From Myxococcota bacterium (GTDB lineage Bacteria; Myxococcota; Myxococcia; Myxococcales; Myxococcaceae): a DNA stretch of 37,122 nt. Positions within the stretch are counted from its first letter, which is position 1. The number at the start of each line of letters is the position of its first letter. Positions 10,761 through 21,042 of this stretch are shown one piece after another. A model generated the notes under the pieces. That model was not told where the DNA came from. It made no database searches and worked only from the letters and a program-made list of their open reading frames with translations. The stretch covers positions 62,001-99,122 of the forward strand of contig JBMORE010000127.1 of NCBI GenBank assembly GCA_049322255.1, written 5' to 3'. The translations under genes and the position numbers were made by a program.

Positions 10761-11369
10761 ATGCTGGTTCCTCCTACCGAAGAACAGACTCTCAACGTCG
10801 ACCACCGGGTCATCCTCCATGGTGTGAGCTGGGCGGGCTACGAGGCAATTCTCGCCGCGCGAGGTGACCACTCGGCGCCGCGCATTGCGTACCTCGAAGG
10901 AGAGCTCGAAATCATGTCACCCTCCGGAGGCCACGAAGCCACGAAGAAGACATGGGCTCGTCTGCTCGAGGCATGGTGCGAGGAGATGGGGGTGCCCCTT
11001 CAGGGCTTTGGATCCTGGACACTGAAGCGCCGCAAGGAAGAACGCGGCGCCGAACCAGACGAGTGCTACATCGTCGGGCGGCGGCATGCGCAGGTGCCCG
11101 ACCTGGCCCTCGAGGTGATTTGGTCGCACGGGGGCCTCGACAAGCTCGAAATCTACCGGCGGCTCGGTGTTCGCGAGGTGCAGCTTTGGGAGAGGGGGCG
11201 CATTTCGGTGTTCGTCTTGCGGAAAGAGCGTTACGTGCGTGCCAGGCGAAGCGCGGTACTGCCAGCGCTCGAGCTCGAGCTGATCGCCCGCTGTCTGAAG
11301 GTGCAGTGGCAGGACGAGGCGGTCAGCTCGCTCCGCAAGGCTTTACGCCGGGAGCGGAAGACGCACTGA
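10761..11369 (+). CDS. Uma2 (DUF820) family restriction-endonuclease-like protein
   Basis: GVSWAGYE, YLEGELEIMSP, EPDECY, PDLALEV and DKLEIYRRLGVREV motifs. Confidence 0.92.
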   Translation: MLVPPTEEQTLNVDHRVILHGVSWAGYEAILAARGDHSAPRIAYLEGELEIMSPSGGHEATKKTWARLLEAWCEEMGVPLQGFGSWTLKRRKEERGAEPDECYIVGRRHAQVPDLALEVIWSHGGLDKLEIYRRLGVREVQLWERGRISVFVLRKERYVRARRSAVLPALELELIARCLKVQWQDEAVSSLRKALRRERKTH

Positions 11370-15992: not shown

Positions 15993-16068
15993 TTAGACCT
16001 ATCGGGCAAGGCCGATCGTGTAGAGTCCCATGCATACCCAGAGCCTGGCGCTAAGAAGGGATTTTTCC

Positions 16069-16803
16069 ATGTGGAACCGGTTCAAAAGAGCGATGCGCAG
16101 CTTCGTGGGGTTCTTCGTGAGCTCCATCGAAGACCCCGAGCTGATCCTCGAGCAGAACATTCGTGACCTGAACGACCAGGTTCCGAAGATGAACGAGTCG
16201 ATCGCCATGGTGCGCGCCAACGTCACCCTCTTGGAGAAGGAGAACGCCAAGTACAAGCAGGAGGTGGGGGACCTCACCGCGAAGGTGAAGGCGGCGATTC
16301 AGGGGGGGCGTGACGACCTGGCGGCGCAGTACGCCACCCGATTGCAGATGGAAAAAGGAGCCCTGGCGCGCAACGAGGCTCAGCTCTCCACCGCCAAGGC
16401 AGCTTACGAGAAGGCGCTGAACGTCAAGAAGATGTTCATGCGCGAGAAGGACAAGAAGACCCAGGAGGCGATGAACGCCATCCGCGACGCGCGGCGCGCC
16501 AAGTGGCAGGCCAAAGTCGCCGACGCCATGGAGTCCTTCGAGGTCGCGGGCATCGACGCCACCCACGACGAGATGGTGCGAAAGGTGGAGGAGCAGACCG
16601 CGGTGAACGAAGCACGCATGCAGATGGCGCTCGAATCGGTCGATCACCAGGCGGTGCAGATCGAGGAAGAGGCGGAGAAGCTCCAGGCCCAGGAGCTGGT
16701 GAAGCAGTTCAAGATGGAGATGGGCCTGACCAGCCCCGCGCCGGTGTCCGAGGTGGGAAGCGCGGGAGAAAAGACGCTGGGCAAGAAGGTCGAGGTCAAA
16801 TGA
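16069..16803 (+). CDS. pspA: PspA/IM30 (Vipp1, ESCRT-III superfamily) protein
   Basis: AGAAGGGA SD before ATG 16069; N-terminal amphipathic [40 protein letters not shown] and long coiled coils. Confidence 0.9.
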
Positions 16804-16809
16804 CAACCT

Positions 16810-16848
16810 CCCCCTCTCCCCTTGGGAGAGGATAGGGGTGAGGGGCGC
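16810..16848. repeat. BoxC-like intergenic palindromic repeat, copy 1
   Basis: CCTCTCCC-CTT-GGGAGAGG hairpin followed by ATAGGGGTGAGGGGCGC; its reverse complement closely matches 19388-19422. Confidence 0.75.
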
Positions 16849-16868: not shown

Positions 16869-18026
16869 TTGATTCGCCGCGGCGGCCTCCTGCTCTTCCT
16901 CGGAATGCTTTTGGGCGCGGCCGCGTACGTCGCTGCGTCACGGTTGGGTTACCTCGACCGGCTCCTGGCGCGGGTGATGGGCGCTCCCCTCGCGTCCCAG
17001 CGCCTCTCGGCGGGTGACTTTCCTGCGGGGGTGGCGGCTCCGGTGGGGGAGATTGCCTCGGTGCCCTTGCGCCCGGTGCGCATCGGCTTTTCACCGCGCG
17101 GCTCCTCGGCGGCGCTCTTGTTGGCCACCGGTGGCGCAGGAGCCGAGCCCAGGGGAGGCCTCTTCAAGACCGCCTATGCGCTCGACGCCCAGGCCGTGGT
17201 GTTTGCCAAGGAAGAGGAGCTGCGAGGGGCGCTCATGGCCGGCGCGGAGAACGGAGGGGTGGACATGGCCGCCGTCTCCGTCGATCGGCTCGCCTTCTGG
17301 TCCGGTGGGCTACGAGACGCCTCGCCTCGTACGGTGCTGCTCTTGGGGAGAAGCCGCGGGCAAGAAGCCCTCGCCGCCGTCGACGTGGAGCAACTCTCGG
17401 AGCTGCGGGGCAAGCGCGTGGGTGCCTACCCGCACAGTCCGTCGAATTACTTCGCGCTGTGGGTGCTCTCGCGGGTGGGGCTGGGCCCGTCAGACGTGCG
17501 GTGGGTGGACCTCGGTTCGGCCCTCGAGGCGGGCGCTGCGCTCAGGGAGGGACGGGCCGACGCAGTCGTGGGACTCTTCGGAGACGTGGAGCTCGCGGCG
17601 CGCGACCGAGGAGGCAAGCTTTTGGCCACCACCGCTGACGCGCCGCACTTGATCTCCACCGTGCTGGTCGCACGGGGCGAGTTCCTCGCGCGCTATCCAG
17701 ACGCGGTGCGGAGGGTGCTGCGGGGGCTACTCGACGCCGCCGGGAGCGTGTCACGAGACCCCATGCCCGCTGCGCGGCTGTTGGGAGAGGTGGCGCCTTA
17801 CCTGGGCGACCCGGTGGAGGCGATCAAGGCCGCGCCGCCAGCGACGCTGCGCGACAACATGGCGTTCTTCGGCCTCTCGGGTGAGGCGCCGGTGACTTAC
17901 GACGAGCTGTTTTTGAGCGCCAGCGCGCTGGCGGTGAAGCTGCGCCGAGCGAGCTCTGTGCCCATCCCCGAAGACACTCGGCACCTGGGAGCGCTCAAGT
18001 ACGTTGCCGAGGCGAGCGGGCCGTGA
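16869..18026 (+). CDS. Membrane-anchored ABC substrate-binding protein, NMT1/SsuA/TauA-like
   Basis: N-terminal [44 protein letters not shown] and DNMAFFGL motifs; TTG start after GAGGGAAG. Confidence 0.8.
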
Positions 18027-18027
18027 G
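17991..18027 (+). repeat. Direct repeat, left copy (current 3' end of the SBP gene, [11 protein letters not shown])
   Basis: gcgctcaagtacgttgccgaggcgagcggGccGtgag; 35/37 identical to 18503-18539, with the first 29 bp identical. Confidence 0.95.
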
Positions 18028-18034
18028 GCTCGGC

Positions 18035-18262
18035 ATGTTCGAGATCATCGGCGCGATTGGGGCCGTCGAAACCATTGCCGTCGGGCACTCGATTCGCGAG
18101 TTGCGCCGGCTCCAAAAGACCTATGGTCGAGGGCGATGGCGGAAGCTAAAGGGCGTTGCTAACGTTCGTTTTCACGACGGCAGGTTCGCCACCGTCGAGG
18201 TTCACTGGTACGAAGCCCATGGGATCGGTCGAAAAGAATTCAAGATCAAGCGGTTCCTCTAA
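18035..18262 (+). CDS. Small basic hypothetical protein, putative toxin
   Basis: ATG 18035 with GAGG SD (alternative GTG 18023 overlapping the SBP stop). Sequence MFEIIG..ETIAVG..IRELRRL..YG.GRWRKLKG..EVHWYEAHGIGRKEFKIKRFL. Confidence 0.8.
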   Translation: MFEIIGAIGAVETIAVGHSIRELRRLQKTYGRGRWRKLKGVANVRFHDGRFATVEVHWYEAHGIGRKEFKIKRFL

Positions 18263-18497
18263 ACGTGCTCGCTCGCGGGCGAGGCGACGTTATGTGGTGT
18301 GCCTGAGCAACGAGGGCTACGAAGCGTCACTCGAACCTCGAAAAATCTATCTCGCGTTGACGGACCCAGCAGCTGAACGTCGGGGATTTCTAAGAGTGGT
18401 CGACGAGTCTGGGGAAGACTATCTGTTCCCGAAGACGTACTTTGCGGCGATCGATCTGTCCGACACGGTAGCCCAGGCCGTTTCCACCATGATGTAG
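18219..18497 (+). CDS. Small hypothetical protein, putative antitoxin/immunity partner (start uncertain: ATG 18219 or GTG 18294)
   Basis: YVVCLSNEGYEASLEPRKIY...FLRVVDESGEDYLFP; overlaps or abuts the preceding ORF and ends 5 nt before the right direct repeat. Confidence 0.78.
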   Translation: MGSVEKNSRSSGSSKRARSRARRRYVVCLSNEGYEASLEPRKIYLALTDPAAERRGFLRVVDESGEDYLFPKTYFAAIDLSDTVAQAVSTMM

Positions 18498-18502
18498 CCG
18501 TT

Positions 18503-18539
18503 GCGCTCAAGTACGTTGCCGAGGCGAGCGGCCCATGAG
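18503..18539 (+). repeat. Direct repeat, right copy (displaced 3' end of the SBP gene)
   Basis: gcgctcaagtacgttgccgaggcgagcggCccAtgag still reads [11 protein letters not shown]; followed by the SD and GTG of the next gene. Confidence 0.95.
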
Positions 18540-18551
18540 AGGAAGCGCGCC

Positions 18552-19361
18552 GTGGCCAGGTTTTTCGATTTCCTCAAGGCGACGCTCTTTTCTCCCGCGA
18601 ACCTGATCTCGCTCGCCGCAGGGGGCGCCGCGGCGGCCACCCTCCACGACCCGACTCCAGTGTACTTCGCGCTGGGGGCGCAAGGGTTGTACCTGGCGCT
18701 CCTGGGAACTTCGCCTGGTTTTCGCCGATGGGTTCTGAAGACCGCCGACGTCGGCGAAGCGCCGGCCACCGGGCGCAAAGAGTTGGAAACGCTCGCTTCG
18801 GAGCTGGCGGCCTCCCAGCGCGAGCACTACTTGGCGCTCAGCGAGCTACGGGATCGCATTCTCGACAACTACCGCAGGCTTCCCGGCGGGCCGGTGCTGG
18901 TCGCCGCCTCGGAGCAGAAGGTCGACGCGTTGCTCGGGGCCTTCTTGCGCTTGCTCTCCACCCTCAACACCTACCGTCGCTACCTCAGCGCCACCGATCG
19001 CAAGTCGCTGGAGCAGGAGATCGACCAGCTTCGGGCCGAGGCCGCCGCCGAGGAGAACTCGCGCGTTCAAGAAGTGAAGAGAAAGCGGGTGGAGATTCTC
19101 CAGAAGCGGGTGCAGCGCTTCGTTCAGGTGGAGGAGAGCCGCGAGCTGGTCAGCCATCAGCTCGCCGGCATCGAGGACCTGTTGCGCTTGACCCACGAGC
19201 AGTCAATCGCCATTCGCGACCCCGAGTCGGTCAGCCGCCAGCTCGATGCCTTGGCGGCCGAGGTGACATCGACGGAGGAAACCGTACGGGAGCTGGAGCA
19301 GTTCATGGAGCTCGGGGAGGAAACGGGCGCCACCATCCCTCAGGGCACCAGGGTGAGATAG
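18552..19361 (+). CDS. Hypothetical protein with N-terminal TM segments and a long C-terminal coiled coil
   Basis: GAGAGGA SD then GTG 18552; two hydrophobic segments followed by an E/L/R-rich helical region (QLAGIEDLLRLTHEQSI). Confidence 0.85.
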   Translation: MARFFDFLKATLFSPANLISLAAGGAAAATLHDPTPVYFALGAQGLYLALLGTSPGFRRWVLKTADVGEAPATGRKELETLASELAASQREHYLALSELRDRILDNYRRLPGGPVLVAASEQKVDALLGAFLRLLSTLNTYRRYLSATDRKSLEQEIDQLRAEAAAEENSRVQEVKRKRVEILQKRVQRFVQVEESRELVSHQLAGIEDLLRLTHEQSIAIRDPESVSRQLDALAAEVTSTEETVRELEQFMELGEETGATIPQGTRVR

Positions 19362-19362
19362 G

Positions 19363-21042
19363 GTGCCGCGTGTGAAAAATACTGGTTCCCTCACCCTTGC
19401 CCTCTCCCAGTGGGAGAGGGGAGCTCTTGTGCTCTGCCTGGCGGCGTTGGTTGCAGGATGTGGAAGCTGCGGCAAGAAGACGGTTGCCGCCCACGCCGGG
19501 GAGCTCAGCCGCTATCTGCCGAAGGACGCCGATGCCGTCCTGGTGGTGAACGACCTGGGCGCCCTGGGTGGAAAGATCGCGCTGCTTCAGCGGCTCAAGG
19601 TCGCCTCCTTCACCGCGCAGCTCCAGGGCTTTCGCGACGCCCAGGAGTACACCTCGGCGCTGATGTCGCAGATCGGCGTCGACTTGCGCTCCGCCGAGGC
19701 GATGGAAAAGGCAGGCATCGATCCTGGCCGTGGGCTCGGGGTAGCGCTTCTTTCCGGCGATCGTGCCTACTCGGTGCTGGCGGTGAAGGACGAGGGCAAG
19801 CTCGAGGATTTCCTCTTGCGCCTCTCCTCGATGCGCATGGGCGCCGGTGTCACCAACACGAAGACCGACCAGGGCGTCACCGTCACCTGGTTCAGTCGCA
19901 TCACCGGCGCGTCTCCTGCGTTGGGCTACGTGATGAAGAACGGGCACGCCTTCATCGCCGCGGGGGCTTCGGTGCCGTTGCTTCCCTCCCTCGTGGCGTT
20001 GCCGGAGGAAAAGTCGCTCGCTCAGGAGCCTGCCCTGAAGGCCGCGCTGGCCCGGCTGCCACAGGAGCGCGACCTCTATGTCCACGTTCCGGCCGCCTCG
20101 TCGCGCGCCAAAGGAGGCGGCGCCGCCGGGGCCACCGTCTCGGCCCACCTCGCTGCGAAGGCCCTCACCTTGGTCGCCGACCTGCCATGGACCGGCCCCC
20201 AAGAGGCGCTCGCCCTGGCCAAGAAGCAAGAGGGGCCCGAGCTGTTCGGCGCCCTTCCCCCCGACGCATTTCTTTTGGGGCGTTTCTCGGGAGACCCCGC
20301 GCTGCTCGCGCCGTACTGGGCAAGCTTGGTGGGGCCCCATCTCACCAAGGCGTTCACCGAGGCGGGCTTCGACTTCAAGGGAGAGGTGCTCGACAACTTG
20401 AAGCCGGGCGCCGCATTCGCCCTCTCGCTCTCACCCGGCATCAACCTCGGCGGCGGCGTGCCCGAGCTCGATGTCCGCCGCACCAACCCTTTCCGCTATG
20501 TTCACCTGTCCGCGGTCGCCGAGGCCAAGGACGGAGCGAAGGCCTCGCAGACGTTGGCGAAGATCCCTCCCCTCGCCCCCCGCTTCGGCGCTCGCATCGA
20601 AGCGGTCGAGCGCGCGGGGAAGAAGCTCTACTCCACCACTTATTCGCAAGGAGAGGGCGTTCACTTCGCCCAGGCGGGGAACCGGGTGCTCTTCGGCGCT
20701 CCCATGGCTCGCTTGGAGGAGCTGCTCGCCAGAGCGGGCGGAACGTCGGCTCCCACGGGTGGCCCGGTGGCCGATGCGGCGCTGCGCGGGGTGCTCGACG
20801 CTCACGCGGGAGCGATGGTGCTGGACCTGCGCCGGCTCGCGCAGTCGGTGCAGGAGCTGCCCTCGCAGGCGTGGGGCATCGGTGGTTTTGCCATCAAGGC
20901 CACCACCTTGCGCTGGCTTGCGGCAACCGATGACCTGCGTGCGGTGACGTTGGCGCTCGACGCCAAGGAAAACGCGCTCCAAGCCGAGATTCGCCTCGCG
21001 CTCACCGAACCCCCAGAGGGAAGGGGTGAGGGGCGCGAATGA
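19363..21042 (+). CDS. Large lipoprotein of unknown function (start GTG 19363 or GTG 19429)
   Basis: Lipobox LVAG-C (Cys at 19459) followed by GSCGKK; LSRYLPKDADAVLVV and GIDPGRGLGVAL; stop overlaps the next ATG (ATGA). Confidence 0.85.
   Translation: MPRVKNTGSLTLALSQWERGALVLCLAALVAGCGSCGKKTVAAHAGELSRYLPKDADAVLVVNDLGALGGKIALLQRLKVASFTAQLQGFRDAQEYTSALMSQIGVDLRSAEAMEKAGIDPGRGLGVALLSGDRAYSVLAVKDEGKLEDFLLRLSSMRMGAGVTNTKTDQGVTVTWFSRITGASPALGYVMKNGHAFIAAGASVPLLPSLVALPEEKSLAQEPALKAALARLPQERDLYVHVPAASSRAKGGGAAGATVSAHLAAKALTLVADLPWTGPQEALALAKKQEGPELFGALPPDAFLLGRFSGDPALLAPYWASLVGPHLTKAFTEAGFDFKGEVLDNLKPGAAFALSLSPGINLGGGVPELDVRRTNPFRYVHLSAVAEAKDGAKASQTLAKIPPLAPRFGARIEAVERAGKKLYSTTYSQGEGVHFAQAGNRVLFGAPMARLEELLARAGGTSAPTGGPVADAALRGVLDAHAGAMVLDLRRLAQSVQELPSQAWGIGGFAIKATTLRWLAATDDLRAVTLALDAKENALQAEIRLALTEPPEGRGEGRE
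19388..19422. repeat. BoxC-like palindromic repeat, copy 2, within or at the lipoprotein 5' end
   Basis: CCCTCACCCTTG-CCCTCTCCC-AGT-GGGAGAGGG; reads in frame as SLTLALSQWERG. Confidence 0.75.
21015..21036. repeat. BoxC-like repeat remnant, copy 3, within the lipoprotein 3' end
   Basis: AGAGGGAAGGGGTGAGGGGCGC is 20/22 identical to 16827-16848; it encodes the C-terminal EGRGEGR. Confidence 0.6.

Follow-up and report, generated by a model that had tools for sequence, protein, structure and literature searches.

A duplicated gene tail around a putative toxin-immunity pair in a Myxococcota genome points to probable gene gain by host recombination

In the window analysed here, a 37,122-nucleotide stretch of one contig of a Myxococcota bacterium, the 3′ end of a gene for a solute-binding protein (SBP) occurs twice, on either side of a 475-bp insert with two small open reading frames, ORF1 and ORF2, which resemble a toxin and its immunity protein (Table 1). 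This duplicated tail is probably the scar of an additive, recombinase-free gene gain by host recombination, with one homologous and one illegitimate joint.

Table 1. Features of the SBP locus (positions in the window)
Feature	Position	Strand	Basis or remark
pspA/IM30-family gene, first of the host cluster	16030..16803	+	PF04012, E 4.5e-20; adjoins SBP in relatives
NMT1/SsuA-like solute-binding protein (SBP), target gene, intact, 385 aa	16869..18026	+	PF09084, E 4.9e-10; orthologs share the C-terminus
Repeat copy 1, working SBP tail and stop	17991..18027	+	Repeat comparison
ORF1, 75 aa, putative toxin	18035..18262	+	Free-standing form of a polymorphic-toxin C-terminal domain
ORF2, putative immunity protein/antitoxin, SH3-like, acidic (DESGEDY), 92 aa from the probable ATG 18219	18219..18497	+	Predicted complex; start codon inferred
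5-nt linker between cargo and second tail copy	18498..18502	+	Sequence
Repeat copy 2, stranded SBP tail and stop, outside called genes	18503..18539	+	Repeat comparison
Downstream host gene, family not assigned	18552..19361	+	Directly 3′ of SBP in 18/24 loci

The two copies of the 37-nt direct repeat, spaced 512 nt apart, are identical at 35 of 37 positions: the first 29 nt are exact and the remaining differences (GGG/GGC and CCG/CCA) are both synonymous. Compared by BLASTN with the whole 4.85-Mb genome the repeat gave an E value of 5e-9, and no third full-length copy of the SBP tail was found there. The insert has 57.5% GC against 66.5% for the genome, and the GC3 of its ORFs is 0.70 and 0.64, compared with 0.83-0.88 in the neighbouring genes. 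Deleting one repeat unit in silico brings the SBP stop to 13 nt upstream of the GTG at 18552 with the GAGG/AGGA preserved. An earlier note on this DNA had described the last SBP codons as present twice with two synonymous third-position differences, the insert as about 58% GC, and a 512-bp deletion as restoring normal operon spacing with the Shine-Dalgarno sequence intact, and all three descriptions are borne out by these comparisons. It had also considered that the duplication might arise in assembly; a separately assembled contig (run X1), probably from the same sample and not independent, covers 17000-19417 at a depth of 38.6 with 0 differences, and no joint is listed for it over that interval; runs X2 and X3 leave this stretch uncovered. 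An assembler artefact is therefore unlikely and the duplicated tail is taken as real.

The GAGG at 18025-18028, 6 nt upstream of the ORF1 ATG, is a candidate ribosome-binding site for ORF1. The cassette had been called seemingly promoterless, and a promoter scan at the pair indeed gave 0 sites, a result that is uninformative since only 0.2 are expected by chance. The downstream gene had no Pfam match over the cut-off. A palindromic repeat family with many copies genome-wide flanks the cluster at 16811-16844 and 19388-19421. Elsewhere in the window, a Uma2-family gene (10761-11369) between amidohydrolase-like and large lipoprotein-like genes is a probable accessory insert with no flanking repeat. 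At G000:C162:45311-49204 the SBP and the downstream gene both have distant paralogs, which are near neighbours there.

An SBP match was found in 28 of the 41 genomes searched. The downstream gene lies directly 3′ of the SBP stop in 18 of 24 orthologous loci (other genomes, all in other genera), giving the one-copy empty site that is looked for in an insertion with long target duplication; in the remaining six the downstream gene is absent from the locus, or the locus ends early. Neither ORF1 nor ORF2 was present at any of the 24, so that the empty allele for which the earlier note had called does exist. Our genus search found no genome of the genus besides the source genome, so the donor allele and a same-species empty allele were not seen. 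A second insert, carrying a Phd/ParE pair, was followed in the relatives in the same way: the methyltransferase-GGDEF gap is 25-244 nt in 18 of 29 loci and the pair is present in 0 of 29. For an insert at hpt, neither cargo nor tail copy was found within 1.5 kb in any of 29 relatives, a weak test given that the source copy lies at 1726 bp.

The scar is not confined to the SBP gene. Of the 95 homolog loci that could be tested, 8 have the pair between duplicated coding tails, compared with 2 of 332 dummy intervals (Fisher p 1.4e-4), the same test being applied to real and dummy intervals of the same loci, with kin not independent and loci with less than 700 nt of flank left out. The genes with duplicated tails are unrelated (an Fe-S oxidoreductase, nrdJ, purH on the opposite strand, a Zn dehydrogenase, MoxR, a luciferase-like gene and unnamed genes), and one of the eight bracketed loci is a duplicated HNH-like gene fragment. 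In the G406 family there were 0 clear cases and 1 weak one in 25 testable loci, a count that leaves out, as repeats, two loci already analysed. The idea that homologs of the cargo would also be flanked by duplicated gene ends thus holds in that the scar recurs at unrelated genes, and fails in that about nine out of ten pair loci have no flanking repeat. For this reason, and since other toxin-antitoxin families of the source genome are scarred at a similar rate (5 of 54 PIN/ParE loci), the pair is not supported as a dedicated element.

One target seems to have been hit many times. In the order around G405, ORF1 was found in 58 of 401 genomes, a tally in which the two unpublished genomes G496 and G641 are counted, their loci playing no further part. 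The pair follows nrdJ in 14 loci (12 of the 28 analysed from this search, together with L091 and L189), of which eight have a second nrdJ tail and six do not. The eight left boundaries are all distinct, at 66, 68, 84, 94, 100, 109, 135 and 138 nt before the stop, and seven of the eight tail copies begin between -11 and +20 nt from the ORF2 stop. The cassette tree and the nrdJ tree reject each other (AU p < 1e-50). As far as the sequences tell, the nrdJ series is better matched by repeated re-entry anchored in homology than by a fixed att site; the varied boundaries may partly reflect erosion of one older copy.

The source genome itself holds 336 direct repeats at 250-8000 bp spacing, 53 of them unique and two-copy. 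After paralogs, internal protein repeats and duplicated genes had been removed by eye and one three-copy site added, 22 other inserts were left, 16 of them with toxin-antitoxin-type modules and six without, which answers the earlier note's call for a genome scan for further tail-bounded inserts. The modules belong to the PIN, ParE, HepT/HEPN with nucleotidyltransferase, BrnT, AbiEii, DUF433 and UPF0175/DUF3368 families, the last two of which we take to be of toxin-antitoxin type. The enrichment is modest: the scar occurs at 5 of 54 PIN/ParE loci versus 14 of 612 controls (p 0.014), which are small genes in general and among whose hits several resemble toxin-antitoxin genes.

Several of these inserts have a structure of their own. 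Three copies of a response-regulator tail enclose two successive inserts at L221 (G000:C189:22800-27400), LysR/CMD/DUF1801 and then nucleotidyltransferase-HepT, which reads as stepwise accretion at one site. At L209 (G000:C53:1-8500) a PIN gene region occurs twice, the copies 87% identical, on either side of some 7 kb with a BrnT pair and three genes, presumably an imuA-imuB-dnaE2 cassette. The head of lipA and its upstream region are duplicated at L210 (G000:C54:20000-22900), where an in-frame fusion of the extra head with a cargo ORF makes a 220-aa chimera, and a 47-bp repeat at L200 (G000:C1:28400-30700) holds the stops of two convergent genes, each copy serving one of them. L203 and L213 have a lone AAA_14-DUF4143 ATPase as the cargo of a repeat-flanked insert.

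The route that we consider probable for the SBP locus would begin with a related donor in which the SBP allele was immediately followed by the toxin-immunity pair. A donor fragment with the SBP end and the pair would have entered the cell and been closed, or joined, non-homologously just past the ORF2 stop, and the 5-nt linker may hold this joint. A single homologous crossover in the SBP tail would then have inserted the fragment and left the tail twice, the copies differing like two working alleles. The host gene and the ribosome-binding site of the next gene are intact in the sequence, and the pair would be expressed as part of the host transcript. The unit would be trimmed as far as the ORF2 stop because selection demands a complete antidote, and such selection may also slow its loss between the repeats; this step is weakened by the finding of Belot et al. 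(2026, PMC13617665) that the chromosomal neighbours of toxin-antitoxin systems are not conserved. The presence of ComEC and Ku genes in the source genome suits this route. A first landing beside a new gene falls outside this route and needs a rarer illegitimate event.

An experimental parallel exists in E. coli, where 56 of 60 clones obtained with a donor of one-sided homology to the end of lacZ carried partial duplications; these measured 109-950 bp in the 14 clones sequenced and were ascribed to degradation, recircularisation and a single crossover (Amarir-Bouhram et al. 2011, PMC3240628). As is proposed for our case, one-sided homology to a gene end led there to foreign DNA with a variable partial duplication; unlike in our case, the donor was an engineered plasmid, and the 37-bp repeat here is shorter than those duplications. 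Classical homology-facilitated illegitimate recombination (HFIR) yields a deletion rather than a duplication. HFIR has been proposed for effector-immunity arrays (PMC5361080).

The differences between the copies bear on whether two alleles met or one was copied. An in-situ long target duplication, in which foreign DNA is caught at a break with both joints illegitimate, for example by Ku-dependent repair, and the resident tail is copied and diverges later, seems to us unlikely. When 21 coding-tail cases were pooled, 78 differing codons were synonymous and 60 non-synonymous (0.57), a fraction far above the 0.36-0.38 of simulated in-situ duplication, reached in 0 of 300 runs, and next to the 0.58-0.73 of two working alleles. 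The 12 least diverged cases had 35 synonymous and 9 non-synonymous codons (0.80), the nine older ones a synonymous fraction of 0.46, between both models, as would be expected if two alleles meet and the spare copy then decays; six further nrdJ cases had 31 and 9. The second nrdJ copies are 82-94% like working tails, while the hosts' nrdJ genes average 77% identity, and five of the eight resemble another genome's tail more than their own. Copying in place does have points in its favour: it needs no donor with the pair at the same gene and so can explain a first arrival at a new site, the source genome encodes Ku, and Furuta et al. propose double-strand breakage as a shared cause (PMC2853133). 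The near-perfect copies in several source-genome inserts (267/267, 168/169, 220/223 and 57/57 nt) also speak for it, although a close donor would yield such copies too.

As to the slightly diverged donor allele that the earlier note had assumed, the pooled synonymous bias argues for it, and the source locus alone, with its two differences, cannot show it. There was no consistent left/right polarity of mismatches (9 versus 8 cases, pooled p 0.09) and no codon bias pointing to a foreign copy (25 versus 28), so a circle followed by a crossover is indistinguishable from an anchored insertion with a backward jump.

We regard it as quite improbable that the insert is the relic of an integrase island, or a cis-mobilisable element, cut down to the pair, with attL and attR on either side, and mobilised in trans. 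Integrase islands typically replace a gene's 3′ end with a carried copy, and 37 bp is within the range of att sites, both of which count for such a relic. More than 20 target sites in one genome count against it, given that this genome has 3 tyrosine-recombinase matches over the cut-off, none of them on the insert-bearing contigs. The repeats, moreover, range from 27 to 267 bp and copy the tail of a gene, the head of lipA or an intergenic junction in full, and a scan of part of the cargo ORFs, serine recombinases aside, yielded no integrase or transposase family. An integrase island or CIME has fixed boundaries at a specific target; the homologs here stand at nrdJ and many other genes, with eight different boundaries at nrdJ alone. 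Mobilisation in trans, one of the routes that the earlier note had offered, is hence not supported in the form of a site-specific integrase. The proposal of Belot et al. (PMC13617665) that a mobile element brings such systems and is then streamlined away speaks for the relic. Cutting driven by the cargo itself, which would suit the basic ORF1 with its invariant His-Trp-Tyr-Glu-Ala-His motif and the right joints lying tightly at the ORF2 stop, is very hard to credit when the same scar surrounds PIN, ParE, HepT/HEPN, BrnT, AbiEii and non-toxin cargo in the source genome and the rate at the pair (8/95) is close to that at PIN/ParE loci.

Integrase-free cargo is a feature of several known systems. 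CIMEs hold it between att-like repeats at a fixed, integrase-defined site, and minimal mobile elements hold it between conserved genes with no duplication needed. Insertion with long target duplication is reportedly also treated by Nobusato et al. in 2000. It was described for restriction-modification genes by Furuta, Abe and Kobayashi (2010, PMC2853133), which makes the earlier note's 'undescribed' route too strong a claim, since the architecture is published. Like those insertions, ours is shorter than 20 kb (475 bp, two ORFs with no family match), has no mobility gene and is bounded by a unique direct repeat of more than 30 bp (37 bp, two copies only); the repeats often span a start or stop and keep the target gene whole, and the insertion is into an operon with an empty site in relatives. 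Unlike them, the cargo is a toxin-immunity-like pair of which neither ORF matches a restriction-modification family in family-library scans (such cargo having been those authors' screening criterion), so that the architecture is the same and the cargo different; the word 'toxin' is absent from the article text of PMC2853133. In further contrast to those cases, the copies here differ like two working alleles and one site was hit repeatedly with varied boundaries. In its passages on the subject, PMC3874152 links long target duplications to restriction-modification systems only.

The toxin-antitoxin islets of PMC13617665 are also alike in being very small islands with only a pair, between core genes and without mobile-element genes, and their spread by host homologous recombination is proposed there, with chromosomal integration called unclear. 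They differ in that the recombination put forward for them takes place in both flanking core genes and leaves no duplication; 'direct repeat' is absent from the main text of that article, and two passages with 'duplicat' are about a Tn3 res-like palindrome and about a duplicated system. No report of the scar for toxin-antitoxin pairs was found in the literature searched, mostly the main texts of open-access articles. What appears new is thus the scar around toxin-antitoxin-like pairs, which we did not find reported, and what is known is its architecture, from restriction-modification genes.

ORF1 and ORF2 had no Pfam, NCBIfam or PADLOC match, and the PHROG matches of the pair were weak (E 0.04-0.35, with 0.35 for ORF1). 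ORF1, in which all 19 invariant columns of alignment A1 are present, resembles the C-terminus of the Rhs-HINT protein P0207 (50% over 64 aa) and that of a MuF protein (39% over 59 aa; MuF proteins P0210/P0211), so that its domain is found at the end of unrelated delivery proteins, the position of the toxic domain in polymorphic toxins (PMC3482391, PMC5576092). The predicted structure of ORF1 (pLDDT 94) matched those of minor capsid and VG15 proteins with TM 0.87-0.88. Among 48,161 chains of solved folds none reached Z>=5, the best being 4.9, with the Barnase/EndoU/colicin/RelE (BECR) folds included in the question. As in the MuF and Rhs-HINT modules (Jamet et al. 2017, PMC5576092; Zhang et al. 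2012, PMC3482391), the domain is terminal and a small partner gene comes next; unlike in those modules, ORF1 stands free, and it has no match to the named Tox/Ntox/Imm Pfam models. The relevant passages of PMC3482391 yielded no description of the pair. The pair is best seen as an unnamed and very widespread family, and a Ct_MAD or BECR subfamily in published supplementary models could cover ORF1.

The family is unevenly distributed. ORF1 occurs in 6 of 401 genomes of the phylum, the source genome included, and is absent from all 171 other same-family genomes searched. At least 7998 of the 8000 candidates scored are its relatives, spread across many phyla, and the family forms 2650 clusters at 50% identity, in which thousands of copies stand free, each having a start codon of its own and lacking a delivery domain. 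The pair had no match in the phage collection and a match in one record of the plasmid collection, and it was present at two loci in viral contigs, neither with a coding-tail duplication. Many split or stop-containing ORF1 matches in the genomes of one further family suggest frequent decay of the putative toxin.

ORF2 comes after ORF1 in 79 of 80 loci from genomes, in 81 of 82 from metagenomes and viruses and in 52 of 56 others, the exceptions in the first two sets being contig ends, so that the two genes form a conserved operon of small proteins as in type II toxin-antitoxin systems. The model of ORF2 is SH3-like (best Z 7.3, rmsd 4.0, 72 aligned) and no HTH or RHH match was found in Pfam, which makes it look more like an immunity protein than a DNA-binding, autoregulating antitoxin. 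The predicted ORF1-ORF2 complex scored 0.86 against 0.01 for the best control, with a mark passed by 116 of 157 solved pairs and 2 of 215 mismatched pairs; the runs share >=95% of contacts, partner pLDDT is >=84, and the acidic segment 47-56 of ORF2 is placed on the invariant R25, H57, K70 and K72 of ORF1. The model thus supports binding and the reading as a putative toxin with its immunity protein, and the toxin-antitoxin-like pair named in the earlier note gains from the conserved operon, the likeness to polymorphic-toxin C-termini and the predicted complex. Given its basic surface and His motif, ORF1 would be a cytoplasmic toxin, probably a nuclease, held by ORF2.

At some homolog loci the surroundings of the pair are of another kind. 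Hairpins resembling attC, which are common after toxin-antitoxin cassettes, follow it by pattern scan at six loci (L121, L131, L147, L155, L158, L163), and such sites were also seen around it by eye at L065, L077, L080 and L085, suggesting integron cassettes; at the source locus no attC follows the last gene. In L035, L043, L049, L052, L123 and L182 the noncoding stretch just 5′ of ORF1 reappears downstream, before the next gene, and in L043 it holds a TTGACA-like site; these are possibly arrays of cassettes, each with the same promoter.

The start of ORF2 required some attention, since at the source locus no ATG, GTG or TTG lies between the ORF1 stop and the Y-V-V-C motif of ORF2, the conserved part of which starts at 18291. 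A frameshifted ORF2 was considered and dropped, because its frame runs without a stop as far back as the ATG at 18219, which is nested in the His-Gly codons of ORF1, and the same pattern is seen at other loci. Of 157 loci with an intact motif, 10 have no near ORF2 start, all in the same frame, and a nested in-frame ATG (in the ORF1 Tyr-Glu or His-Gly codons) is present in 10 of these 10 versus 10 of the 147 others, four of the ten belonging to one clade, which leaves about seven independent cases. From this contrast ORF2 appears to start at 18219 and its translation to be under selection.

A wider picture, which we put forward tentatively and hold to be doubtful as a whole, is that of toxin-antitoxin pairs with a recombinase-free life cycle: they would sit beside the 3′ end of a conserved gene and re-integrate repeatedly across species through its tail, each round stranding the resident tail and toxicity trimming the unit to the antidote stop. 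On this view the cargo would represent a large new family of toxin-antitoxin pairs, derived by domestication from a polymorphic-toxin domain whose fold is unclassified, and its antidote start could hide in the toxin's conserved motif. More generally, these comparisons suggest that toxin-antitoxin-type pairs can enter chromosomes by host recombination rather than by an integrase. As a scar, the duplicated gene tail can be counted, and it comes with sharp predictions (RecA dependence, a variable boundary, the allele of origin), which makes one candidate integration route testable in genomes and at the bench, and the nrdJ series offers repeated events at a single site. The cargo family, for its part, forms a bridge between polymorphic toxins and free-standing toxin-antidote pairs, and its activity may be a new one.
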